A stretch of DNA of 64,000 bases, from the NCBI RefSeq assembly GCF_058153355.1, contig NZ_CM177019.1. One strand, given 5' to 3'. The translations under genes and the position numbers were made by a program. The notes under the pieces are model-generated. The model did not search any database. It saw only the letters and a list, made by a program, of their open reading frames with translations, and was not told the origin of the DNA. Shown piece by piece: positions 2,241 to 54,027 of the stretch (its first letter is position 1; every line of letters starts with the position of its first letter).

Positions 2241-2995
2241 TCCTGCACGCGCAGGCAAAACACGGCAAACCAGGTTTACCCTGGCTGGTGTTTTTGCACG
2301 GTTTTTCCGGCGATTGCCAGGAATGGCAAGAAGTGGGCGAGGCGTTTGCCGACTACTCGCGGTTGTATGTTGATCTCCCTGGTCACGGTGGTTCGGCAGC
2401 AATTAGCGTCGATGGATTTGATGATGTCACCGGCTTACTGCGTAAAACTCTGGTTAGTTACAACATCCTTAACTTCTGGCTGGTGGGGTACTCGCTCGGC
2501 GGACGGGTGGCGATGATGGCGGCTTGCCAGGGGATGGCGGGGCTTTGTGGCGTGATTGTCGAAGGTGGGCATCCCGGGCTGCAAAGTGCTGAACAACGCA
2601 CGGAACGTCTGCTTTCCGATCGCCAATGGGCGCAGCGTTTTCGCACAGAACCATTAACGGCGGTATTTGCCGACTGGTATCAACAGCCTGTCTTTGCCTC
2701 GCTCAATGACGATCAACGCCGGGAGCTGGTGGCGCTGCGTAGCCACAATAACGGTGTAACGCTTGCTACTATGCTGGAGGCCACTTCTCTCGCCGTCCAG
2801 CCTGATTTACGTGCTAACCTTAGCGCCCGCACATTTGCGTTTTATTATTTATGTGGTGAACGTGACAGCAAATTCCGCGCTCTGGCGGCGGAACTGGCTG
2901 CCGACTGCCATGTCATTCCTCGCGCCGGACATAACGCGCACCGGGAAAATCCCGCTGGCGTAATCGCAAGTCTGGCGCAGATCTTGCGTTTCTGA
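2237..2995 (+). CDS. menH: SHCHC synthase MenH (alpha/beta hydrolase, 252 aa)
   Basis: 4-bp overlap with menD stop; GYSLGG nucleophile-elbow motif; synteny. Confidence 0.9.
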
Positions 2996-12764: not shown

Positions 12765-13904
12765 TTATTGTCCTGCGAGTTGCTGAAGGGCTGTGATGAC
12801 GCGGTCGGCATCGGCGGTGGTCATATCCGGGAACAGCGGCAACGAACAGATGCGTTCGCTATTCCATTCGGTATTCGGTAACGACAGCTCGGGAAAACGC
12901 TCGCGATAATATTTTTGCGTGTGAGCGGCGCGGAAATGTAACCCGGTACCAATGCCTCTTTCTTTTAACGCTTCCATCAACGCATCGCGACTGATACCAC
13001 AACGTTGTTCATCGACACGAATAATAAACAGATGCCAGGCGTGAACGTGCGGCCAGGCGGGAAGGCTTAATGGCTCAAATGGGAGAGCTGCCAGAGCTTG
13101 CTGATATTGCAGAGCAATTTCGCGCCGACGGGTGTTGAGGTGCTCTAATTTGGCTAACTGGGTCAGGGCAATCGCGGCGTTAATATCGGTCAGATTATAC
13201 TTATAGCCCGGCGTTAAGACTTCAGCTTGCGGTGCACGGCCCCAGGTTTGTCTGTCATATGCATCGACACCCAGACCGTGAAATTTCAGCATCCGTAGCT
13301 GGCGGGCAAGGTTTTCATTATCAGTAACAATCAGGCCACCTTCCGCACAGGTAATATTTTTGATGGCGTGAAACGAAAAAATAGCGGTACCTTTTGCGCC
13401 AATATGTCGGCCTTTGTAATACGTACCGACGGCATGGGCAGCATCTTCGATAACTGCGATGCCGTAACGTTCGCCAATGGCGCGAATGGCGTCAATATCT
13501 GCTGGCGCACCGGCATAATGCACCGGAATGATGGCTTTAGTGCGTGGCGTAATGGCTGCTTCGATCGTTTCAGGCGTGACCATCAGCGTATCGCGGTCGA
13601 CATCCACCATTACCGGCGTTGCACCCAACAAGGAGATCATATTGAGGGTTGAAACCCAGGTCAGGGAAGGCGTAATCACTTCATCGCCCTTGCCAATTTC
13701 CAACGCCATTAGCGTGATATGCATTCCGGCGGTGGCTGAACTGACCGCGATGGCATGCTGATTTCCCGTCAACTGGCAAAAGGCTTGTTCAATCGCCTGA
13801 TTCTTCGGACCGGTTGTGATCCAACCGGATTCGAGAACCTCTTTAACTGCTGCGAGTTCCTCCACGCCCATTGCTGGTCGCGAAAAAGGCAAAAATTCTG
13901 ACAT
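12765..13904 (-). CDS. arnB: UDP-Ara4O aminotransferase ArnB
   Basis: Track ORF 12765..13937 (GTG start); start set at internal ATG ([10 protein letters not shown]...); upstream alternatives at 13922 and 13937 are possible. Confidence 0.85.
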
Positions 13905-14002
13905 TGCTTTTCCTTCCGCCATTGAATACCTGTCCACTTATATTTGCTATAAAGAGTGTTGTGTATATTTTGCCATTTGGAGCGAAATTCTAAGGATAGA
14001 AT

Positions 14003-14019
14003 ATTAACTTAACCTTAAG
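14003..14019 (-). promoter_or_regulatory. PmrA-box-like direct repeat CTTAAG-N5-GTTAAT upstream of arnB
   Basis: Minus-strand sequence CTTAAGGTTAAGTTAAT about 100 bp upstream of the arnB start; matches the YTTAAK-N5-YTTAAK pattern as I recall it. Confidence 0.45.
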
Positions 14020-14211
14020 AAATTAATATTAGACGTAAATATTGAAATTTTTATATTTTTTCTTATTTAGGCTTTGCATTTGGCAAAATTTTGAGGCATT
14101 TTGCCGGCATCGTAGGATTTTTAATATTACACCAACTGCTAATTATCGCCAGAAATGTCGCTCAATTTCACGGTAATTGTCTGGTTGCACTTGTCTATAG
14201 GTGGAGTTTAC

Positions 14212-14814
14212 GTGTTAGCTTTTTGCCGCTCTTCGTTGAAGTCAAAAAAATATTTCATCATTTTACTGGTGCTCGCTGCAATTGCCGGACTGGGTACTCA
14301 TGCCGCCTGGAGTAGTAATGGTTTGCCACGTATCGACAATAAAACACTGGCCAGACTGGCACAGCAGCACACGGTTGTCGTTTTGTTTCGCCATGCTGAA
14401 CGTTGCGATCGTTCAACCAATCAATGCTTGTCAGATAAAACAGGTATTACGGTCAAAGGTACCCAGGATGCCCGTGAACTGGGCAACGCTTTTAGCGCTG
14501 ACATCCCTGATTTCGATCTTTATTCCAGTAATACCGTCCGGACCATTCAGTCGGCGACCTGGTTTTCAGCGGGGAAAAAGCTGACGGTAGATAAACGACT
14601 TCTTCAATGCGGTAATGAGATTTATAGTGCAATTAAGGACTTACAAAGCAAAGCACCTGATAAAAATATCGTTATTTTTACCCATAATCATTGCCTGACA
14701 TATATTGCTAAAGATAAGCGTGATGCGACATTTAAACCTGATTATCTGGATGGTTTAGTCATGCATGTAGAAAAAGGCAAAGTTTATCTGGATGGGGAAT
14801 TCGTTAACCACTAA
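14212..14814 (+). CDS. ais: lipopolysaccharide core heptose(II)-phosphate phosphatase Ais/PmrG (200 aa)
   Basis: Track ORF 14155..14814 trimmed to GTG giving (M)[14 protein letters not shown]...; histidine-phosphatase motif RHAERC; divergent from arnB. Confidence 0.75.
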
Positions 14815-26990: not shown

Positions 26991-27137
26991 TGTTATCCCT
27001 CTGAAGTTCGTTTTTTTACCATTTAGCCATAGTAAAAACATGAATTGTTTGATTTCGCGCATATTCACTCATAATTCGAAAGTGAAACGTGATTTCATGC
27101 GTCATTTTGAACATTCTGTAAATCTTATTTAATAATG

Positions 27138-27153
27138 TGTGCGGCAATTCACA
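27138..27153. promoter_or_regulatory. CRP-like palindrome TGTGC-N6-TCACA in glpA/glpT divergent control region
   Basis: Sequence tgtgcggcaattcaca read in the 195-bp intergenic region. Confidence 0.35.
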
Positions 27154-27263
27154 TTTAATTTCTGAATGTTTTCTTAACATCGCGGCAACTCAAGAAACGG
27201 CAGGTTCTCCCACTGAATCAGGCTGTTAATCATAAATAAGACCACGGGCCACGGAGGCTTTCA

Positions 27264-29922: not shown

Positions 29923-30993
29923 TTATTCGAATTTCGGAAAGGTAAAGAAAATATTAATGTATCTTATTAATTTATCATATTGTTCTTGGGTGAATGCTGT
30001 TTGCACACCTTCAGGGCAATATTTACCAGTAATAACCAGTTGCCCATTGCTGTGTTGTACCATTAAACCTTCTTTTTCCTTTGGATCTACAAACTTAGAA
30101 TTATCAAATGTGAAGATATTTTTTTCCTGTTTTGAGTAAGCAAAGAAATCTCGTGTATAGCTGAAACTATCATTTATTAATGGTGCTAACTTTTTGTCGG
30201 CGATATCGATAAGCTCACCACTTAATTTATTGATGTATTTCATTTGCTTCAATTTTTTCTGCGCTTGCACAATTTGCTTGTAGGTGTTTTCAATTTTTTT
30301 AGAAGAATTCTTAAATACATCATAGCGTTCCTCGGAGGATGTGTATTTGTACCATTCTGTATTTTTCTCAGAATGCAGTAGCAGATCTGTATATTCTTTT
30401 TGCTTGCTGTAAAGTTGAGTTCTTATATTTAACTCGTGGATAAATTTATAAATTTTGTCAGAGTTGGTTATTTTTGGTGTGTCTTTGTCTGTCAATGTTT
30501 GGATCTTGTTATTGATATTTTCTTTTGCAACATGCTCATTGATGATGTTAATTGCAGTTTCATATTCATTTAAATTTATTGTTCTTTCTGAAAGAAACCC
30601 TTCTTTGCTTTCGATACTCAAAACACCTTCGTTGTTTTCACCTCGGGTAAAGGTAAGGGTATAGGGTTCATAATCTTCTGCAAATTCATTTTTATACGTT
30701 ATGACATGCTCGACAAAATGTCTTATTGGTACGAAACCATAACTGTGAACGTCAATTTTTTGTGTTTTGATACTATCAATTTCATCTGAGGCTTTCGTGA
30801 AAAAAGCCAATAAATTAGCTATGTTGTCTGCTGAGGTTGATAACCCGAATCTACTTTGAGATATTTTTAGAAACTCATTGCAAAAAATCTCAAGTTTCGC
30901 GGTTTGTTGTGATTCTTTGTAAATTTCTGCTGTTTGCAATTTATTATTTTGTAAAATATTACAGCGAGATAATTGAATAGATGTATTTGGCAT
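29923..30993 (-). CDS. hypothetical protein (356 aa), AT-rich orphan gene in glpQ-inaA islet
   Basis: Long ORF in strongly AT-rich DNA; ATG with AAGGA RBS (MPNTSIQLSR...); Lys/Asn/Glu/Tyr-rich, no TM segments, no motif recognised. Confidence 0.6.
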   Translation of the reverse strand: MPNTSIQLSRCNILQNNKLQTAEIYKESQQTAKLEIFCNEFLKISQSRFGLSTSADNIANLLAFFTKASDEIDSIKTQKIDVHSYGFVPIRHFVEHVITYKNEFAEDYEPYTLTFTRGENNEGVLSIESKEGFLSERTINLNEYETAINIINEHVAKENINNKIQTLTDKDTPKITNSDKIYKFIHELNIRTQLYSKQKEYTDLLLHSEKNTEWYKYTSSEERYDVFKNSSKKIENTYKQIVQAQKKLKQMKYINKLSGELIDIADKKLAPLINDSFSYTRDFFAYSKQEKNIFTFDNSKFVDPKEKEGLMVQHSNGQLVITGKYCPEGVQTAFTQEQYDKLIRYINIFFTFPKFE

Positions 30994-31459
30994 AAATGAT
31001 TCCTTGTATTGTGAGTTAACAAGATACAATTTAATCTTTGCAGAATATATTCACTATCAAATTTAGCTCATTTTATTACGAAGACCTTTACGCATGTTAG
31101 AAAGTATCATTATTGTTAATAAATACGGTAATAAGTAACAAACAGATATTGATAACTTCCCTGACTAGTTATTAGGTATCCCACTTGAAGATTGAGAATG
31201 GCTCCAGAGTAAACTGTGTACTGTTCGCCGGAGTGTCATTACTCTCAACAATCGGTTTTGACAGTGAGTCGGGCGCTTCATACCGGTTTCTACCTGGAGT
31301 CATTGTCACTTCTCCCAACTGAATAAATATATATCGCCAATTCACAAAGTGGGCCAAAATCAGGTGAAAACGAATTATTACGCCTGGTAAAGACTATAGT
31401 ACAACTAAGTGTGGCGAATCAGGCAGTCTTGCATTTGTCATCAATCTCATGTCTTACAT

Positions 31460-31700
31460 CAAATTTTTCCACTCACCACGAGTTGTTCCGTACACGTTTG
31501 TAGTACAAACAGTGGACTGCCTTCTACCGGCTTTTCTTTAGCCAGCAACGAAATCTGTCGATAGAAGGTTGGTTCGAGAGGAACGGAACACAATTCACCT
31601 GCAATGGTTTTCAGCGTTAACTCTGGTAATAAGGCGATGCCTAATCCCTGTCGAATAAAACTGATCGCTGTATCCGGGTGATTAAATTCATATTTTATTT
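31460..31700 (-). pseudogene. LysR-family regulator C-terminal remnant (yfaH-like)
   Basis: Minus-strand translation gives ...GIALLPELTLKTIAGELCSVPLEPTFYRQISLLAKEKPVEGSPLFVLQ... with no N-terminal HTH domain or start codon. Confidence 0.45.
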
Positions 31701-31880
31701 GCTGGGTGCACTATTAGTGGTAGTGGCTGGTGGAGTCTATGCGCTGCAAATGAAGGGCAAAAGCGGTGTCGCGCTAGTAGTGGCAAAAGAAATTCATTAA
31801 TACGACACGTTTCATTAAGATTTTTCGCAGGTAACCACCTATAGTCATTGTCGTTAATAAAAAATGACAGGCGATAGGGT

Positions 31881-34113: not shown

Positions 34114-36399
34114 TCAGATCTTACATGCGCCGCTTTCGCAGCCATCGTCCTGAATTGACGGCACCAGATCGTCTTGTGCGTCTTCTGCACCGTCACGGGT
34201 GTTCTGATAATACAGCGTTTTGACCCCGAATTTGTAGGCGGTGAGCAGGTCTTTCAGCAGTTGCTGCATCGGCACTTTTCCTGACGGGAAGCGTGACGGA
34301 TCGTAGTTGGTGTTAGCAGAGATCGACTGATCGATAAATTTCTGCATGATACCCACCAGTTGCAGGTAGCCATCGTTACCCGGCATTTCCCACAGCAGCT
34401 CATAGGCGTCGTGCAGATGCTCGTAGTCCGGCACCACCTGGCGCAGAATACCGTCTTTCGACGCTTTGATGCTGACGTAACCACGCGGCGGTTCAATACC
34501 GTTAGTGGCGTTAGAGATCTGCGAAGAAGTCTCTGACGGCATCAGAGCAGAAAGCGTGGAGTTACGCAGGCCGTGCGTTTTGATTGACTCACGCAGTGCT
34601 TCCCAGTCGTAATGCAGCGGCTCATTAGCGATGGCATCCAGATCTTTCTTATAGGTATCGATCGGCAGGATCCCTTTCGCGTAAGTGGTTTCGTTAAACC
34701 ACGGGCACGCGCCTTGCTCTTTCGCCAGCTCATTAGACGCTTTCAGCAGGTAATACTGAATGGCTTCGAAGGTTTTATGCGTCAGGTTGTTGGCGCTGCC
34801 GTCGGAGTAGCGTTTACCGTGCTTCGCCAGGTAGTAAGCGAAGTTGATCACACCAATACCCAGCGTACGACGACCCATCGCTCCACGTTTAGCGGCCGGG
34901 ATCGGGTAATCCTGATAATCCAGCAGTGCGTCGAGTGCACGAACCGCCAGAATCGCCAGCTCTTCCAGTTCATCCTGGCTGTTAATTGCGCCCAGGTTGA
35001 AAGCAGAAAGCGTACACAGCGCGATTTCACCGTTCTCGTCGTTGACATCATTCAGTGGTTTGGTCGGTAGGGCGATTTCCAGGCACAGGTTAGACTGGCG
35101 CACTGGTGCAATAGCCGGATCAAACGGGCTGTGGGTGTTGCAGTGGTCTACGTTCTGAATATAGATACGACCGGTAGACGCACGTTCCTGCATCATCAGC
35201 GAGAACAGCTCAACGGCTTTCACACGCTGCTTGCGGATGCTGTCGTCTTTCTCATATTTGGTGTACAGGCGTTCAAACTCTTCCTGATCGGCGAAGAACG
35301 CGTCGTACAGCCCCGGTACGTCGGACGGGCTGAACAGGGTGATATCTTCACCTTTCAGCAGACGGGTATACATCAGTTTGTTGATTTGTACCCCGTAGTC
35401 CATATGACGCACGCGGTTGCCTTCAACCCCACGGTTGTTTTTCAACACCAGCAGGCTTTCCACTTCCAGATGCCACATCGGGTAGAACAGCGTTGCTGCA
35501 CCGCCACGCACACCGCCCTGAGAGCAGGATTTCACCGCTGTCTGGAAATGTTTGTAAAACGGAATACAGCCGGTGTGGAATGCTTCGCCACCGCGAATCG
35601 GGCTACCCAGCGCACGAATACGCCCGGCGTTAATGCCGATCCCGGCACGCTGGGAAACGTATTTAACAATCGCGCTGGAGGTGGCGTTGATGGAATCCAG
35701 GCTGTCGCCGCACTCAATCAGCACGCAGGAGCTGAACTGACGAGTCGGGGTACGCACGCCGGACATGATTGGCGTCGGCAGCGAAATTTTAAATGTGGAA
35801 ACCGCGTCGTAAAAACGCTTCACGTATTGCAGGCGCGTTTCACGCGGGTAGTTCGAGAACAGGCACGCAGCAACCAGAATATAGAGGAACTGGGCGCTCT
35901 CATAGATTTCGCCGGTCACGCGGTTCTGTACCAGATATTTGCCTTCCAGCTGCTTAACGGCAGCATAAGAGAAGGTCATATCACGGTCGTGATCGATAAA
36001 CGTGTCCATCTGCTTGAACTCTTCTTCCGTGTAGTCTTCCAGCAGATGATTATCGTATTTGCCCATCTCGACCATTTTCACCACGTGGTCGTACAGCGCA
36101 GGCGGCTCAAACTGGCCGTAGGCTTTTTTACGCAGGTGGAAGATCGCCAGGCGCGCGGCGAGATACTGATAATCCGGCGCATCACGGGAGATCAGGTCTG
36201 CGGCAGCCTTGATAATAGTTTCGTGGATGTCAGAGGTCTTGATACCGTCATAAAACTGAATGTGGGAGCGCAGTTCGACCTGGGAAATCGAAACGTTATG
36301 CAGTCCTTCTGCCGCCCAATCCAGAACGCGATGGATTTTGTCGAGATTGATGCGCTCTGTGCTACCGTCGCGCTTTGTCACCAGCAGATTCTGATTCAT
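34114..36399 (-). CDS. nrdA: class Ia ribonucleotide reductase alpha subunit NrdA (761 aa)
   Basis: Track ORF 34114..36591 trimmed to MNQNLLVTKRDGSTERINLDK... Confidence 0.95.
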   Translation of the reverse strand: MNQNLLVTKRDGSTERINLDKIHRVLDWAAEGLHNVSISQVELRSHIQFYDGIKTSDIHETIIKAAADLISRDAPDYQYLAARLAIFHLRKKAYGQFEPPALYDHVVKMVEMGKYDNHLLEDYTEEEFKQMDTFIDHDRDMTFSYAAVKQLEGKYLVQNRVTGEIYESAQFLYILVAACLFSNYPRETRLQYVKRFYDAVSTFKISLPTPIMSGVRTPTRQFSSCVLIECGDSLDSINATSSAIVKYVSQRAGIGINAGRIRALGSPIRGGEAFHTGCIPFYKHFQTAVKSCSQGGVRGGAATLFYPMWHLEVESLLVLKNNRGVEGNRVRHMDYGVQINKLMYTRLLKGEDITLFSPSDVPGLYDAFFADQEEFERLYTKYEKDDSIRKQRVKAVELFSLMMQERASTGRIYIQNVDHCNTHSPFDPAIAPVRQSNLCLEIALPTKPLNDVNDENGEIALCTLSAFNLGAINSQDELEELAILAVRALDALLDYQDYPIPAAKRGAMGRRTLGIGVINFAYYLAKHGKRYSDGSANNLTHKTFEAIQYYLLKASNELAKEQGACPWFNETTYAKGILPIDTYKKDLDAIANEPLHYDWEALRESIKTHGLRNSTLSALMPSETSSQISNATNGIEPPRGYVSIKASKDGILRQVVPDYEHLHDAYELLWEMPGNDGYLQLVGIMQKFIDQSISANTNYDPSRFPSGKVPMQQLLKDLLTAYKFGVKTLYYQNTRDGAEDAQDDLVPSIQDDGCESGACKI

Positions 36400-36476
36400 G
36401 TATGTCGTACCTGTTTTTGGAATTCTTTCCGCAATAGCTTCATGCAGACTACCTGTAGTGAGGGAAGCTGCTAAGA

Positions 36477-36522
36477 ACACTATATATAGGGGGTATGTTT
36501 GGGATTCACTGCAAGATAGTGT
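36477..36522. promoter_or_regulatory. two NrdR-box-like palindromes upstream of nrdA
   Basis: acactatatataggg and cactgcaagatagtgt about 30 bp apart, resembling the NrdR box as I recall it. Confidence 0.4.
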
Positions 36523-36552
36523 GAAAATGGCCCTCTTGCAAGTGCATAACTT

Positions 36553-36561
36553 TGTGGATAA
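36553..36561 (-). promoter_or_regulatory. DnaA box (TTATCCACA) in nrdA upstream region
   Basis: Plus-strand tgtggataa is the reverse complement of the 9-mer consensus. Confidence 0.45.
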
Positions 36562-37094
36562 CTCAGGAAGGAAAAAGTGGCTTTCGCGCACCTTAGGTCA
36601 GACAAGGTGTCCGGGAAAGTCAATGGGAAGAGAAAAATTTGTTAAAAATAACTGTTCGGCGATTTCTTGAACGGCAGAATAGTATGGGTAAATTGATATA
36701 GATGGTTTATTAATCTTATCGCTAATGATTGTCAAAATTGATCTAAGTACGAATCATCACATAATCTGATGTATCAGTTGTGGTCAATATATAAGCGAAT
36801 GTAAGCGATTGTTGAGTCGGAAATGGTTGTTTTCTATTCGGTTATTGTTAAATACCAAGCCAATTTGTTACTTTTGCATATATTATAAGAATATTATTTA
36901 TTACTTTAATTCAGTTTAAATATAACCGATTTACCTTAAGGTTATTAATTTGAATTATGATACACTGATATTATTCATCAAGTAATAACAAAATAGTCAT
37001 TGCGCCGGGTTGTACAATTTACAAAATAAATATACCCCATAGCGCATAATGCGATTAAATATGCCGTCTTATAGAAAATGATGGTTAGATGAAT

Positions 37095-44551: not shown

Positions 44552-48239
<3,688 letters not shown>

Positions 48240-48299
48240 TAAAATTACATTAATTATCAACATGTTAGTGTGAGCAGGTCATTATTAGTCAAAATAAAA

Positions 48300-49373
48300 T
48301 CATTTGTTGATTTCAATTTTGTCCCATTCTCTCCCTCGGCTGTCCCTATACCGCGCCGCCATTGAATCTGATTTATGCCCGAGAAGACGTTGAGCAAATT
48401 TATCGCCAATCTGGTTCCGGTATAGCCTCGCTGACAGGCTACGCAGTTCATGGAATGTTGGCGGGTCTCCATCAAATGAGAGTCCGGAGGCATTTCTCGC
48501 CTTTGTAAAATACTTTGATACTGTTTTCGGGGAAAGCGGATCGTGATGCTTTGATGCGATTATAGTTTCACTGCTGCTGGCTTCCCTGCATTTCTGTAGT
48601 GTATCAACCAGTGAGATATTGAGCGCGTCAATCGTTAGCGTCAGCGGAATGGCGAGCTTAGCCCCTGTTTTACCCTGCTCAATGTGAAGATGGTTGTCGT
48701 TTATGTCTGACCACTTCATTCTACATAAATCGCCCACTCTCTGCCCTGTAATGACGGCCAAATCCATTGCCAGCCTCAGCCAGATAGGGAGAGGTTCGGC
48801 TGCATGGTAAATCTCGACATACTCATTAGCTGTCAGCCTTGAGCGCCTTACTTCTGACTTTGCTGTGCGGGTTGCTGTTACCGGATTCGTAGCCACATGC
48901 CCCTCGGCTATTGCTTCACGAAAAACGTCAACAAGGGTTGACCTGATTAATTTTGCGGAAGCCGCTTTACCTTCTGCTACGTAGGTATTTAGCATTGCTG
49001 CCACCTCTTTCGTTGATATGTCAGTGAGCGGTTTGTCCGGCAATTTTCTTCGAATTGCCCTGATTTTGCTGGCGTAGTCGAGTAGAGTTTTCGGTCTGAT
49101 GCCCCTCTCGCTGAGGATTGTTTCATATCGGTCAAGCCACGCATGAAGAGTGATTGCGTCAGCGCCTTTAATCCTGTCTATCAGTGACTCACGCCTGTTC
49201 TCAGATAGCAACTCAATATTGGCCTGAATAGCCTCTGAAACTGCTATCCTTCTGTCTCTGCCTAATCCGAACTCTTTACCCGTCCTTGGGTCCCTGTAGC
49301 AGTAATATCCATTGTTTCTTATATAAAGGTTAGGGGGTAAATCCCGGCGCTCATGACTTCGCCTTCTTCCCAT
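48300..49373 (-). CDS. int: lambda-family tyrosine integrase (357 aa)
   Basis: N-terminus MGRRRSHERRDLPPNLYIRNNGYYCYRDPRTGKEFGLGRDRRIA matches my memory of lambda Int; C-terminal catalytic region with HELRSL...LGH...Y. Confidence 0.9.
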   Translation of the reverse strand: MGRRRSHERRDLPPNLYIRNNGYYCYRDPRTGKEFGLGRDRRIAVSEAIQANIELLSENRRESLIDRIKGADAITLHAWLDRYETILSERGIRPKTLLDYASKIRAIRRKLPDKPLTDISTKEVAAMLNTYVAEGKAASAKLIRSTLVDVFREAIAEGHVATNPVTATRTAKSEVRRSRLTANEYVEIYHAAEPLPIWLRLAMDLAVITGQRVGDLCRMKWSDINDNHLHIEQGKTGAKLAIPLTLTIDALNISLVDTLQKCREASSSETIIASKHHDPLSPKTVSKYFTKARNASGLSFDGDPPTFHELRSLSARLYRNQIGDKFAQRLLGHKSDSMAARYRDSRGREWDKIEINK

Positions 49374-49569
49374 TTCTGATCCTCTTCAAAAGGCTATCTG
49401 TTACTGGTCGATTTAAGTCAACCTTTACCGCTGATTCGTGGAACAAATACTCTCTTCCATCCTTAACCGGAGGAGGGAATATCCTGCACTCGCGTACCCA
49501 TCGACGAACTGTTTCAAGGCTCCTTGGGCGTCGCTGGCGTGCGTTCCACTCCTGAAGTGTCAAGTACAT
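49351..49569 (-). CDS. xis: lambda-type excisionase (72 aa)
   Basis: MYLTLQEWNARQRRPRSLETVRRWVRECRIFPPPVKDGREYLF matches my memory of lambda Xis; overlaps int start. Confidence 0.85.
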   Translation of the reverse strand: MYLTLQEWNARQRRPRSLETVRRWVRECRIFPPPVKDGREYLFHESAVKVDLNRPVTDSLLKRIRNGKKAKS

Positions 49570-49653
49570 CGCAAAGTCTCCGCAATTACTCGCAAGGGAG
49601 CGAGTATTGGTTTATTTTCTCCAACAAAAAAGGAGCCGAAGCTCCTTTGATGA

Positions 49654-50325
49654 TTAAAATTCGAATTGTCTCGCCCGAAGGCTTTTCAGCATTGGTTTTG
49701 CCCGTTCGAAAAGGGCGCTTGCTTGGTCAAGTCGTGTCGCCTCCCTTAGCAGTACATCTCTGTTTTTCGTCACCGTGTAAAAAGTTTCAAACGCGATGTC
49801 ATACAGCTTGCTCGTGTATGATGAGTTCAGTTCCTTCAATATCGGGTACAGACGTTTGCAGATGTCCTGCGCATTCTCCATCTGTACCTGCATATAGCAA
49901 AGGAGGATGATTTCTTCGTCTGTGAATTGCGGCTGAATCTGCGGCTGCAGTTCGGTTGGTGTTGTTTTTCCCTGGCTGAAATAACAGTCTTCCAGTTTTT
50001 CGAACACATCCCACGCCTGATCGGTTTCGAGCATTTTGGCATGACGGGCGGCACCGCGTTCTGTCCAGAGGATGAGCGAGCGAACGTTACGGGCGATTGT
50101 CACAGAGTGACTTAAAGACACTCTGTGCTTAAACTCACGCAATTCTGCACCTTCCAGCAAAAAATAATGTTTACCAATAACAAAACGTTCATGGTTTCGG
50201 CTGTGGTTTTTGCGAATATTAGTTACATCTGTGCCGTAAAGGTGGGCAAGAAGTTCAGTAGTAATAACGGGGATTTGGTTATGGCTGATCTGGGGTACCG
50301 TTTCTACGGTGATTTGAGTAGACAT
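49654..50325 (-). CDS. phage antirepressor-like protein, ORF6N-type N-terminal domain
   Basis: KHYFLLEGAELREFKH...ILWTERGAARHAKMLETDQAWDVFEKLEDCYF resembles the ORF6N/antirepressor family; start chosen at the second Met (50325); track ORF start 50337 is the alternative. Confidence 0.5.
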   Translation of the reverse strand: MSTQITVETVPQISHNQIPVITTELLAHLYGTDVTNIRKNHSRNHERFVIGKHYFLLEGAELREFKHRVSLSHSVTIARNVRSLILWTERGAARHAKMLETDQAWDVFEKLEDCYFSQGKTTPTELQPQIQPQFTDEEIILLCYMQVQMENAQDICKRLYPILKELNSSYTSKLYDIAFETFYTVTKNRDVLLREATRLDQASALFERAKPMLKSLRARQFEF

Positions 50326-50490
50326 AGTCTTCTCCATATGTGTTTTAGTCTACGCTCACCAGTTAGTAGCTGGTGATCGGGTGTCAACTAGAGCCACATA
50401 TGAAGCTCCGGGCATATTCCCCTTGTGGGTATTGTATTACGCCTCTCCACCCGACCTTTGTACGGATGTAACTACGCCAAATTGCAGGCA

Positions 50491-50568
50491 TAAAAAAGCC
50501 GCAAAGCTATCGGGTGCGGATGACCGCATATGTGTTCTAGTACGGCCAGTATGCGATAGCTTTGGCGG
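50491..50568 (-). other. inverted repeat plus run of six T (minus strand) between the two antirepressor paralogs; possible terminator or structured RNA
   Basis: gccgcaaagctatcgg ... cgatagctttggcgg arms about 40 nt apart; reverse complement ends in TTTTTT. Confidence 0.25.
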
Positions 50569-50655
50569 ATTTGTCAAATCATGTAGGCCTTATCTTGCTG
50601 TAAGCCGCGCCATTCGGGCTTTTCCCCACATTTGGGGAAAACTATCTTGTCAAAA

Positions 50656-51438
50656 TCATGCAGCCTTTCGCTCTCCTTCGATGAGTTCCTCTATTTTGTG
50701 CACTCCAGCCTCGTTGTACCGAAATGTTTCAACCTGCTTGTCATTGTGCGCCGATTTGTCGATGAACCACTTCCCGTACTTTTCTGTTTTGAGCATGTAG
50801 GTGTTGGCTATGCGTCCTACCTTGTTGGCTGAAATACCGTAGCGCTGGCCGACTTCCGTAGCAGAGTAGTAGTGCTCTGAGATAGCTGGCAGAGGTACAA
50901 CATCGCGACCAACAATCGGGTTGAACACTCCAGCTACTGCTGCCTGCTTTGATTCTGAGGACAGATTCGGGAACATATTCACCAGTCGATCCGCCACGTT
51001 CAAAGCTATTTCCATGGCTCGCGCACGGTCTAGGCTACTTTCTGGTTGCGGTACTGGTTGAGGATGGTTGGCAACCTTTTCGCGCTGATTGAAGTAGCCG
51101 TCCTCCAGTTTTTCGAACACGTCCCATGCCTGATCGGTTTCGAGCATCTTCGCGTGACGGGCGGCTCCGCGCTCTGTCCAGAGGATGAGGTGGCGTGCAT
51201 TTGGGGCAATTTTCACAAAGTAGTTTAAAGCTACTTTGTGTTTTAGCGCGCGCAGCTCGTCACCAACGACCTTGTAGAAGTGTACCCCCTCAACAAAGCG
51301 CGACTTGTTTTCATGATGGTTTTGCCGGATGCGCACAACATCCGTTCCGTACAACTGCGCCAATAGTTCGCTGGTGATGACGTTGGTTTGTTTGTAGGTG
51401 ATTGGTGAAAGTGTTTCAACAGAAATTTGAGTATTCAT
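50656..51438 (-). CDS. phage antirepressor-like protein, ORF6N-type (260 aa), paralog of 49654..50325
   Basis: About 60-70% identical N-terminal 120 aa to the neighbouring ORF, with a distinct C-terminal domain. Confidence 0.5.
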   Translation of the reverse strand: MNTQISVETLSPITYKQTNVITSELLAQLYGTDVVRIRQNHHENKSRFVEGVHFYKVVGDELRALKHKVALNYFVKIAPNARHLILWTERGAARHAKMLETDQAWDVFEKLEDGYFNQREKVANHPQPVPQPESSLDRARAMEIALNVADRLVNMFPNLSSESKQAAVAGVFNPIVGRDVVPLPAISEHYYSATEVGQRYGISANKVGRIANTYMLKTEKYGKWFIDKSAHNDKQVETFRYNEAGVHKIEELIEGERKAA

Positions 51439-51580
51439 AGCGTCCTCACATTGGCTTTTGCATTGAAGAAAGCTTGACGGTGAACTCGCCGTAGCGAGTT
51501 CAGATAAAAGAAATCTCCGCGAATGCGAGGATTGTTATTCATTGCCGATATTCACCTTTATCTCAAACACCTTTATCGGC

Positions 51581-51823
51581 TTATCTCCTTTGCATGGCAC
51601 GTAATTTTTTCAGATGGTTCTCCTGCTCTGTTTCAGCCAGGATCTGGTGATATTCTCTGTGATCAATGTGTTCGAATAAATTATTGAATTTTCTGATGCA
51701 CACCCTTCCAGGATAGCCATCCATCCTCTTGAAGAATACTGAGTGATCAGTACTACGAATGATTTTTACTGGATAGCCAGCGCTATCGGTGTATATCTGA
51801 CCACGTTGAATCAGAGCGAACAT
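51581..51823 (-). CDS. hypothetical phage protein (80 aa)
   Basis: ORF in the leftward early operon; no motif recognised. Confidence 0.3.
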   Translation of the reverse strand: MFALIQRGQIYTDSAGYPVKIIRSTDHSVFFKRMDGYPGRVCIRKFNNLFEHIDHREYHQILAETEQENHLKKLRAMQRR

Positions 51824-51907
51824 TCCTTTATCTCCAGCGGCAAATCGAATACATCATCAGTGCCACCGCCAGTGCGGTTCCTACCTCTTTGAATGCTTCA
51901 GGCCAGG

Positions 51908-52627
51908 TCATTGATTCACCTCCTTCGGCGGTTCTGGTAGCGGCATCCAGTGGGTTACATTGCGGCTCTGCGTTTCGAAGAACTCCTCACCATTGCGGAC
52001 GACATCAAAAAATTCACCGTCTCGATATTGCGCATAAAGAACGAATGCGCCATCACATAAAATAATTACGTGCTGACCATCATCAGGCATTCGCTCACTA
52101 CAGCTTATCCAACCATCCGGAATTACCGGAGAGTTGCCGGGTTCTTTAATGTGCAAGCGAGGCTCACCATCTTTTGGTTCAGGCCACTGGCGTTCCATGT
52201 TGATCTTCAATTTATTTTCCATAGCAGCGGTAATTTCAGCATCACTGATACCAGCACGGCGCTGTGCATCCCACAACAGAAACTGCATATCAGCCCACTC
52301 GCTAAGATCGTCTGGTTCGGCTGCGGCTTCCAGTTCATCCAGCAGTACCAGCACGGTAGCCGGATTGGCCTCTGCTATGAATTCAGCGTTTGCATAAGCC
52401 TGAGCATCTGTTTCAACCAGGCAGTTAACATGACATTCTGCAATCACGCCACCGGGTTCTCCTTTCCATTTTTGACAAACAAAAACTCCTGTTAAATTGC
52501 CATGCCGATTAACAGATGTATGCCCTACGATGTAGCTTCCTTTAGTTGCTTTTTCTGCCTTGGCACGCAGTGCCTGATAGTCAATCTTGCTCACTGGTTG
52601 CCTCCTTTGCGAATCTGTTCCGCCCAT
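51908..52627 (-). CDS. phage protein with C-terminal DUF551-like domain (Ead/Ea22-like region of lambdoid phages)
   Basis: C-terminal WISCSERMP...VTHWMPLPEPP pattern recalled from DUF551 prophage proteins. Confidence 0.45.
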   Translation of the reverse strand: MGGTDSQRRQPVSKIDYQALRAKAEKATKGSYIVGHTSVNRHGNLTGVFVCQKWKGEPGGVIAECHVNCLVETDAQAYANAEFIAEANPATVLVLLDELEAAAEPDDLSEWADMQFLLWDAQRRAGISDAEITAAMENKLKINMERQWPEPKDGEPRLHIKEPGNSPVIPDGWISCSERMPDDGQHVIILCDGAFVLYAQYRDGEFFDVVRNGEEFFETQSRNVTHWMPLPEPPKEVNQ

Positions 52628-52962
52628 TCTTCTAGGGATTTCTCCGCATATTCACCAGACAGGCCATCAATCGGATGCGGTTCATTAGCCAACTCTTCTT
52701 TCGCTGACAGAATCATGCGTGTAACGTCGAAAACTTCACGTAAAGACTTATTGATAAATCCGTGATTGAACGCAGCAGCAAGACGGCTTGCGGTATAGTT
52801 AATACCCTCGTTGCGAGCCTCAGCACGTACTTCATCGAATTTACGCACCAGATATTCAGCGTTTGTTTCGTTAACCTTTAAATCTCGTGGGATGCATTTA
52901 CCTTTCAGAAATCCATCCATCTCAATTAGTGACATTTGTTTCATTTCTTCCCACTCCGCCAC
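52591..52962 (-). CDS. hypothetical phage protein (123 aa)
   Basis: Co-oriented ORF, unrecognised. Confidence 0.35.
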
Positions 52963-53115
52963 ATCGCATTCAGATATTTGTTGTCATTAACAGAACCGAA
53001 ACTCTTTCTCTTAAGCAATTCCTCTCTCGATGGCATTGGCTTTACGCGCTGGCGAATAATCATTTCTGCTGGAAGAATGCCGGGATTGTATGCAAGTCCT
53101 CTCATGGTAAATTCC

Positions 53116-53412
53116 TCAGTCATTACTGATAGCGCCATAGCGTGAGCGGTAATTACGCAGGCGCGGGTCGATATATTCAGGGAAGTGGGTATATGTGGCT
53201 TTGCGGAATGGTCTCATTGCTGTTTCGTTTGTTCGGTCCTTCTCCTGTTTTAGCGCGAGTTGTATATCGCGTCGGTACATCCGTTCTGCTTTTGTTTCTG
53301 GTGTCAGAGCAAGAAACGCGTCGAAATTGTTTTTGATATTTTCCAGCACCTCCGTCTTGGAGCTACCGGAGCAGTTGCGCGGGTCATCCGCACCATACAG
53401 AGGCGCTGGCAT
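53116..53412 (-). CDS. hypothetical phage protein (98 aa)
   Basis: Co-oriented ORF, unrecognised. Confidence 0.3.
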
Positions 53413-53435
53413 AATGGGAGCCTTATTTTCAGTAA

Positions 53436-54023
53436 TCAGAAAGGAGGGTAATCGTTCTGGCTGTAACCATAATCATCTGCATGATTCTGGCTTACGTTTT
53501 TAGAGCGATTGTCTTTATCTTTGAGGCTGGCAACCATGTTGGCGATAGTTTCTGGTTGCTTGCCTTCCGACTTTTCTTTAAGGGTTTGACCTGTTTGTGC
53601 AATAAACGGGATGCGTATTTCCATCTGGTAGCTGTCTGCGCCAGTCTTTTTGTTTGTGGTTAATACTTTCTGGAGCACTAACCCGATTTTCTTTCCATGA
53701 AATTCAGGAGCAACAAATTTACTGGCGGAAACCATATGTTGCGTTAACTGCTTAATCCCAACACACCCCATCATGGCATGAACGACGTTTGCACCAAACT
53801 TGTTTTCCGTTCCGTCATTTTTCTGAACACAAACGCTAAGATACTGGATTTTACGTCCGTCGTCGGATTCTCCAGAAAACTCAATAAATTTGGCTCCTTT
53901 CTCTGATTGCTTTAGTTCTGCTTCAGTAATGGTAATGATATGAGCGCCAGTTTCGTTAATAAAACCACCTTGCCCTGCGGTCAGTGCTGCTTCTTCGTTA
54001 TAAGTAAAAATCACGTTGCTCAT
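53436..54023 (-). CDS. putative ssDNA-binding protein (DUF669-like) with SSB-like acidic C-terminal tip
   Basis: Ends DDYGYSQNDYPPF, like the SSB C-terminal tail; lies next to a Sak4-like ATPase. Confidence 0.4.
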   Translation of the reverse strand: MSNVIFTYNEEAALTAGQGGFINETGAHIITITEAELKQSEKGAKFIEFSGESDDGRKIQYLSVCVQKNDGTENKFGANVVHAMMGCVGIKQLTQHMVSASKFVAPEFHGKKIGLVLQKVLTTNKKTGADSYQMEIRIPFIAQTGQTLKEKSEGKQPETIANMVASLKDKDNRSKNVSQNHADDYGYSQNDYPPF

Positions 54024-54027
54024 GCTT

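Follow-up and report, generated by a model that had tools for sequence, protein, structure and literature searches.

A conserved PmrA/BasR box as the very probable activator site of the arnBCADTEF promoter in an Escherichia coli chromosome, with notes on neighbouring NrdR, DnaA and CRP sites

A 17-mer lying between the divergent genes arnB and ais of Escherichia coli, CTTAAG-GTTAA-GTTAAT (CTTAAGGTTAAGTTAAT; 14003..14019, minus strand), is very probably the activator site of PmrA (BasR) at the arnBCADTEF promoter, as judged from its sequence, its conservation and the naming of the same box in earlier work (PMC10729948). The box is present in the orientation of arnB, is conserved, and keeps a fixed spacing to a -10 hexamer. 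It is also an already known element and a case of ordinary core-genome regulation, and the same applies to the NrdR, DnaA and CRP sites found elsewhere in the window (the whole stretch of 64,000 nucleotides analysed here), which have been described previously. In this sense, the expectation of the sequence-only reading that all of these are core-genome regulation was correct, since every site has its precedent in the literature.

The window is an E. coli-type chromosome corresponding to the 50-51 min region of K-12 in inverted orientation. As deduced from the annotation of near-identical strains, the gene order is men genes, pmrD, arnFETDACB (minus), ais (plus), nudI, yfaZ ... glpCBA (minus), glpTQ (plus) ... 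nrdBA (minus), yfaL, ubiG and gyrA. The regulated target, arnB (pbgP/pmrH; 12765..13904, minus strand), is the first gene of arnBCADTEF, and both its limits and those of ais (14212..14814, plus strand, with a GTG start at 14212) follow from the open reading frames and the RefSeq annotation of near-identical strains. The RefSeq start of arnB is the ATG at 13904 (minus); if translation began at the in-frame ATG at 13922, the N-terminus would instead be MAEGKAM. Between the two genes there is a divergent intergenic region of 307 bp that contains the PmrA box. The stretch around the box, which covers ais and arnB, finds a match in 5418 of the 5426 complete E. coli genomes, in most of them with 95-99% identity. 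None of the PmrA, NrdR, DnaA and CRP sites is marked in the RefSeq annotation, and an Rfam scan of all three control regions gave no RNA family match.

The repeat and the PmrA consensus

On the plus strand, positions 14003..14019 read ATTAACTTAACCTTAAG, whose reverse complement is the arnB-sense 17-mer given above. Half-site 1 occupies 14019..14014, the spacer 14013..14009 and half-site 2 14008..14003, so that the box stands 99-115 nt upstream of the arnB ATG. The sequence-only reading had placed a PmrA-box-like repeat at these positions between arnB and ais, and both its sequence and its coordinates, inside the intergenic region, were found to be right. With respect to the pattern YTTAAK-N5-YTTAAK, the arnB-sense strand agrees at 11 of the 12 specified positions, in the form of two direct-repeat hexamers with a 5-bp spacer. 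The single deviation is a G, not a Y, at the first base of the second hexamer (position 12 of the box), which is the most variable position among the orthologues (G in 12, A in 16, C in 34 and T in 8 of 70). An identical box occurs in the K-12-like record NZ_CP062250.1 (2359292..2359308). In 2012 Ogasawara reportedly defined the BasR box as a TTAAnnTT direct repeat, a definition that would presumably fit TTAAGGTT and TTAATATT at the PmrA box region.

The degenerate pattern (C/T)TTAA(G/T)-N5-(C/T)TTAA(G/T) is the published PmrA consensus (PMC1525208, PMC10729948), and the validated form CTTAA-N5-CTTAA was derived, among others, from yfbE, i.e., arnB itself (PMC1525208). Moreover, exactly the same 17-mer was named as the PmrA consensus 'with a slight modification' in the arn promoter of EPEC, PmrA binding being a prediction in that work (PMC10729948). 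Counting such patterns is of little help on its own: with one mismatch allowed, YTTAAK-N5-YTTAAK matches 4 times in the 64-kb window versus 3.8 expected from shuffles, and a relaxed pattern, chosen post hoc, matches once versus 0.19 expected. The PmrA box is therefore not separable from chance by pattern count alone in 64 kb, and its context is decisive. In this line, the consensus matches of PmrA, DnaA, CRP and NrdR all occur about as often as chance predicts in 64 kb, so significance by pattern counts was dropped as a criterion, and context and conservation were used instead.

Conservation across species and within E. coli

The 400 nt upstream of arnB were examined in 81 sequences, comprising the window and 80 loci with close ArnB relatives, one genome being taken for each species and some 25 enterobacterial genera represented (Escherichia, Citrobacter, Salmonella, Enterobacter, Klebsiella/Raoultella, Kluyvera, Kosakonia, Buttiauxella, Erwinia, Pantoea, Dickeya and others). 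The pattern CTTAAK-N5-NYTAAB occurs in arnB orientation in 70 of the 81 species and on the opposite strand in 3, compared with a mean of 0.33 (maximum 2) in Markov-1 random versions, figures to be read knowing that the relaxed patterns were written after a first listing had been seen and that the species are phylogenetically related. After the box, a TAnnnT hexamer follows at a gap of exactly 10 nt in 68 of these 70 promoters, with gaps of 5 nt and 16 nt in one promoter each, and the ten gap positions themselves vary freely. The letters T, A and T of the hexamer are conserved in 68, 70 and 70 promoters, respectively, and the spacer Ts at box positions 8-9 in 56 and 68 of the 70. Since neither the hexamer nor these spacer Ts formed part of the selection pattern, they attest independently to constraint. 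A slightly wider pattern recovers the whole arrangement of box, N10 and TAnnnT in 75 of the 81 species. Invariant motif columns standing beside scrambled neighbours, as this alignment has them, are the classical signature of a footprint.

Within the species, the 32-mer at 13991..14022, which includes the 10-nt spacing, the box and three upstream bases, is at least 99% identical in no fewer than 5397 of the 5426 complete E. coli genomes; the 1.2 kb around the box typically differ from the window by 2-3% among E. coli genomes, and the nearest variable positions between the window and K-12, 13990 and 14023, flank the invariant 32-mer. The box sequence is the species-wide E. coli allele. Altogether, the proposal of a PmrA-box-like repeat upstream of arnB is borne out by a phylogenetic footprint with fixed promoter geometry, by invariance in E. 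coli and by the literature that names the 17-mer (PMC10729948).

A particular case among the loci is that of Citrobacter amalonaticus S646 (locus L005), whose box is identical to that of E. coli. Because it lies 327 nt upstream of arnB, compared with about 120 nt in sister strains, some 200 bp may have been inserted between promoter and gene in this strain.

Promoter geometry and proposed activation

The putative -10 hexamer of the PmrA-dependent arnB promoter is TAGAAT (13987..13992, minus strand), which starts 11 nt after the box and corresponds to the conserved TAnnnT. From this hexamer, transcription of arnB would start at about 13980, and the leader would measure about 76 nt. Because the box ends 10 nt upstream of TAGAAT, it would span about -39..-23 and replace the -35 element, with half-site 1 at the -35 position; the promoter indeed has no -35 hexamer, and half-site 1 is found where one would be. 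The predicted end of the E. coli box at -23 agrees with the K. pneumoniae pbgP promoter, where PmrA protects the DNA from -22 upstream, at the predicted box (PMC2565834). The third position of the -10 hexamer (13990), just outside the invariant 32-mer, is polymorphic, with TAGAAT in the window and E. whittamii and TAAAAT in K-12.

The first steps of the mechanism are established in the literature on the system. Either PmrB detects Fe3+, Al3+ or mild acid, or PmrD shields phosphorylated PmrA in low Mg2+. Phosphorylated PmrA dimerises through its receiver domains and places its two winged-helix DNA-binding domains head-to-tail on the direct-repeat hexamers, which are 11 bp apart from start to start. 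Located at the -35 position, as the geometry allows to propose, PmrA could then recruit RNA polymerase, probably by a contact with sigma region 4 of the kind made by PhoB at pho boxes, and transcription would proceed leftwards into arnB. The resulting expression leads to L-Ara4N on lipid A and, in this way, to resistance to polymyxin and cationic peptides.

Several published results are consistent with these steps. In the crystal structure of activated PmrA on the K. pneumoniae box, the protein is dimerised through its receiver domains, and its two DNA-binding domains occupy half-1 and half-2 in head-to-tail order, with the -35 element located at half-1 (PMC4660055). The PhoB-sigma4 ternary complex was used in the same work as the docking template for PmrA, and its authors (Lou et al.) state that there is no direct evidence for a contact between PmrA and sigma4 (PMC4660055). 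As for expression, an arnB-lacZ fusion was activated to a similar extent in constitutive basS and basR suppressor-mutant backgrounds (PMC8151780), and the mRNA of arnT was 50-fold up in a pmrA-constitutive strain (PMC8129183), data that set the box upstream of a gene with PmrA/BasR-dependent transcription. BasR would also bind the exact E. coli fragment, to judge from orthology and from the second-hand citation of a mobility shift assay with the ais promoter.

Relatives of the box

The window box represents E. coli in the family of PmrA boxes at arnB/pbgP, and its closest relatives are the boxes of Salmonella and Klebsiella. The box of Salmonella enterica pbgP (pmrH/arnB), in the pmrG-pbgP intergenic region, shares with the window the orthologous target and the divergent neighbour, pmrG being the orthologue of ais, as well as the two-hexamer arrangement with a 5-bp spacer and the 10-nt gap to TAnnnT. 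In S. enterica subsp. diarizonae, it reads CTTAATGTTAATTTAAT and is found at -115 from the ATG, exactly as in the window. The hexamers differ, CTTAAG/GTTAAT in the window versus CTTAAT/TTTAAT in Salmonella, whose box is a perfect consensus whereas that of E. coli has the G at position 12. In 2004 Winfield and Groisman reportedly observed that PmrD of E. coli K-12 couples PhoPQ to PmrA poorly, and low-Mg2+ induction is said to differ between the two despite the conserved box.

The pbgP box of Klebsiella pneumoniae, which has been footprinted and co-crystallised with BeF3-activated PmrA, is a direct repeat in the same orientation as in the window, and the Klebsiella/Raoultella loci keep a 10-nt gap from the box to TAAATT. 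The Klebsiella box, CTTAAT-ATTAT-CCTAAG, differs nevertheless in its hexamer letters, and its promoter region carries an extra PhoP box with a second, PhoP-dependent promoter (a feedforward connector loop), unlike E. coli, which is without the PhoP box. When the PhoP pattern KGTTTA-N5-KGTTTA was sought in the ais-arnB intergenic region of the window no match was found, in agreement with previous work (PMC2565834). More distantly, the pho box of PhoB, of the OmpR/PhoB-family class II type, is likewise a tandem direct repeat with an 11-bp period in place of a -35 hexamer, although its recognition sequence differs from that of the PmrA box.

A possible single site for two divergent promoters

The location of the box between two divergent genes raises the possibility, tentative and rather doubtful in our opinion, that a single bidirectional PmrA site serves both promoters, the same bound dimer activating ais and arnB. 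The TTAA core is self-complementary, the box reads ATTAAC-N5-CTTAAG on the ais strand, ais is located 193 nt from it, and no second consensus box was found in the ais-arnB intergenic region. Furthermore, the mRNA of ais is 2.64-fold lower in a basSR deletion (PMC12419081), and the same source cites a mobility shift of BasR on an ais promoter fragment. The divergent neighbour is also ais in Escherichia, Salmonella and the C. amalonaticus group, at box-to-ais distances of 157-193 nt, but most species retain the box although their neighbour is not ais. Read in reverse, the box has 2 mismatches, and inspection of the alignment showed that the conserved TAnnnT at 10 nt is absent on the ais side. 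The only sigma-70-like match in that direction, TAGACG-16-TATATT (14030..14057), would put the box at about -45..-61 and is conserved neither in E. whittamii nor in E. albertii. A class II-type ais promoter using the reversed box was accordingly rejected, there being no conserved TAnnnT 9-11 nt from the box on the ais side and no conservation of that sigma-70-like match. The initial description of the repeat as lying between divergent arnB and ais holds therefore for its position; the box is, however, oriented and spaced for arnB and is not symmetric for both genes.

Other elements in this intergenic region are worth describing. A third hexamer with a TTAA core, ATTAAT (14022..14027, minus strand; ATTAGT in K-12, which differs at 14023), is located 2 nt upstream of half-site 1, and a TTAA core occurs at this position in 18 of the 70 species (Citrobacter, Salmonella, Klebsiella/Raoultella and one Kosakonia). 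Together with the PmrA box it forms an outer palindrome, AATATTAA...TTAATATT (14000..14030). On the other hand, the 8-mer GGCAAAAT is found three times within 140 bp (13968..13975, minus; 14082..14089, plus; 14098..14105, minus), and the copy at 14098..14105, AAAATGCC when read in the arnB sense, does not vary in the alignment of Escherichia, Salmonella and Citrobacter; this 8-mer may be an ais promoter or operator element. Two of its copies make up a GGCAAAAT/ATTTTGCC inverted repeat at 14082..14105 (arms 14082-89 and 14098-105). As an RNA hairpin or terminator this repeat was rejected, since its arms do not co-vary (Salmonella has lost the left arm and kept the right one) and no terminator is predicted. 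Taking these elements together, the control region could hold a quasi-palindromic core that, with the third hexamer, is shared by the paralogues PmrA and QseB in both directions, plus a separate ais element GGCAAAAT, a scheme we regard as unlikely. If true, it would represent an undescribed regulatory layer for the dephosphorylation of the LPS core.

QseB and chance as alternatives

Very improbable is a view derived from work with EPEC, according to which the box or the surrounding 60 bp are primarily or additionally a QseB site, bound PmrA acts as a repressor that occludes RNA polymerase, and transcription of arn requires the absence of PmrA together with phosphorylation of QseB by PmrB. Like BasR, QseB is a regulator of the OmpR family, and in its phosphorylated form it shifts a 60-mer equivalent to window positions 13981..14040, with the whole PmrA box included (PMC10729948). 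In a pmrA qseC double mutant of EPEC, arnB and eptA are constitutively up, and the authors of that work proposed that PmrA blocks RNA polymerase (PMC10729948). The effect was nevertheless seen in EPEC only in the double mutant (PMC10729948), and with the probe used in the mobility shift a QseB site could not be told apart from the PmrA box. Phosphorylated QseB may therefore cross-bind the site of its paralogue when the QseC phosphatase is missing. Against a repressor role, arnB-lacZ and arnT are induced by activating basS/basR alleles (PMC8151780, PMC8129183), pbgP is activated by PmrA from the orthologous box in Klebsiella and Salmonella (PMC2565834), and the conserved box-N10-TAnnnT arrangement lacking a -35 hexamer has the geometry of an activator-dependent promoter. 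We think that cross-binding of phosphorylated QseB to the PmrA box without the QseC phosphatase is a more economical reading than one of PmrA as a blocker.

Finally, a purely fortuitous match with no specific protein partner, in intergenic DNA that is AT-rich and has many short repeats, has a negligible probability and was ruled out, for even if one-mismatch matches to the consensus occur in the window at the chance rate, 70-75 of 81 species conserve the box with fixed orientation and spacing between variable flanks, and it is invariant in about 5400 E. coli genomes. The preferred reading continues to be that of a PmrA (BasR) activator site for arnB.

Regulatory sites upstream of nrdA

The sequence-only reading had also noticed two NrdR-box-like palindromes and a perfect DnaA box upstream of nrdA, whose ATG is at 36399 (minus). 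Both palindromes are present: box 1 of nrdAB, ACACTATATATAGGGG, which is CCCCTATATATAGTGT on the nrdA-sense strand (36477..36492, minus), is identical to the K-12 oligo, and the classical predicted 'box 0', CTGCAAGATAGTGTGA (36509..36524, minus), is identical to K-12 as well and overlaps the nrdA -10 region. In a 2025 study, NrdR bound boxes 1 and 2 with a Kd of about 113 nM versus >6000 nM for boxes 0 and 1 (PMC12176259). Box 1 was required for binding and box 0 contributed little, boxes 1 and 2 being the true site (PMC12176259). Of the two palindromes first noticed, only box 1 thus belongs to the high-affinity site, and its partner lies outside the range originally proposed. This functional partner, box 2, was located by alignment to the published K-12 oligo at 36446..36461 (minus) and reads TCACTACAGGTAGTCT. 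The linker between boxes 1 and 2 is 15 bp and box 0 is 16 bp from box 1, so the region has the composition of a two-box NrdR operator, and the annotation of the site is corrected here to the pair formed by boxes 1 and 2, in contrast to the classical pair of boxes 0 and 1.

The box 2 of the window differs from that of K-12 at its two outer bases (TCACTACAGGTAGTCT versus GTACTACAGGTAGTCT, starting with TCAC versus GTAC), and there is one further change in the 15-bp linker. With acaCwAtATaTwGtgt as the NrdR consensus, the TCAC change would presumably bring box 2 of the window closer to it. The 131-bp nrdA control region of the window is a lineage allele, because only 1154 genome records reach at least 99% identity to it.

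With regard to DnaA, the perfect box TTATCCACA (36553..36561, minus), the only one in the 64-kb window, is followed 3 bp downstream by a second box, TTATGCACT (36541..36549), in the double box TTATCCACA-aag-TTATGCACT (36541..36561, minus). The perfect box noticed upstream of nrdA is therefore real, and it forms part of a double box, gTTATCCACAaagTTATGCACTt, that is bound at nrdA in ChIP-seq experiments and is identical in the window (PMC11317965). Part of the 131-bp control region is also matched in 217 E. coli plasmid records. One of these, pAPSLC-111K (2501..2542 of locus L082), was inspected, and in it 42 nt are about 95% identical to the DnaA double-box region (window 36523..36564), at about 140 nt upstream of a gene annotated as 'DNA polymerase III subunit theta' and adjoining humD.

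Regulatory sites between glpA and glpT

Between the start of glpA (26990, minus) and the ATG of glpT (27264, plus) there is a CRP palindrome, already suspected from the sequence, which corresponds to the footprinted cAMP-CRP site of glpT, AATGTGTGCGGCAATTCACATT (27135..27156, plus). Its core, TGTGCGGCAATTCACA (27138..27153; TGTGC-GGCAAT-TCACA), agrees with TGTGA-N6-TCACA at 9 of 10 positions and is placed at about -41.5 with respect to the glpT promoter, as is typical of class II. In EHEC, cAMP-CRP protected the identical 22-mer from DNase I at -30..-52 of glpT, a stretch that overlaps the -35, and expression of glpT was undetectable in crp and cyaA mutants (PMC5352689). From this footprint, the start of glpT would therefore be near 27187, 77 nt before its ATG. 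An FNR-like site, TTGATTTCGCGCAT (27049..27062, plus), falls within the FNR-protected region reported in the same work (PMC5352689). The DnaA and CRP sequences of the window are both identical to the published K-12/EHEC sites. The identification of the NrdR, DnaA and CRP sites rests on their position and on published binding data, the count of each of them taken alone being unremarkable.

Other features of the window

In the interval between glpQ and inaA (29923..31800), the closest annotated strain has a hypothetical gene with a frameshift, along with two truncated pseudogene fragments, of which one is a remnant of a LysR substrate-binding domain; this indicates gene decay in this interval. 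The far end of the window contains insertion sequences and prophage DNA. A 448-aa transposase ORF of the IS4 family is present in two copies (46651..47997 and 57279..58625, both plus), and an IS66-family transposase ORF is found at 59399..60970 (plus). Collinearity with the closest E. coli genome is broken by the first IS4 copy at about 46585, and past about 48.2 kb there is no match to the yfaT...ato...rcsC region of the closest strain. This last stretch (about 48230..64000) looks like a lambdoid prophage, and it includes a tyrosine recombinase ORF (48300..49373, minus) as well as Rfam matches to Lambda_thermo, the cIII thermoregulator (55671..55729, minus), and to sRNA-Xcc1 (50367..50456, minus).

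Significance of the arnB box

The call made from sequence only has been confirmed for the arnB box by independent comparative evidence. Moreover, the succession of box, 10 nt and TAnnnT across about 25 genera offers a usable annotation rule. The box is the cis element for activation by PmrAB (BasSR) of the L-Ara4N modification of lipid A. Of the chromosomal routes by which Enterobacteriaceae become resistant to polymyxin and colistin, this modification is the main one, and the integrity of the box is therefore relevant to the reading of resistance genotypes.
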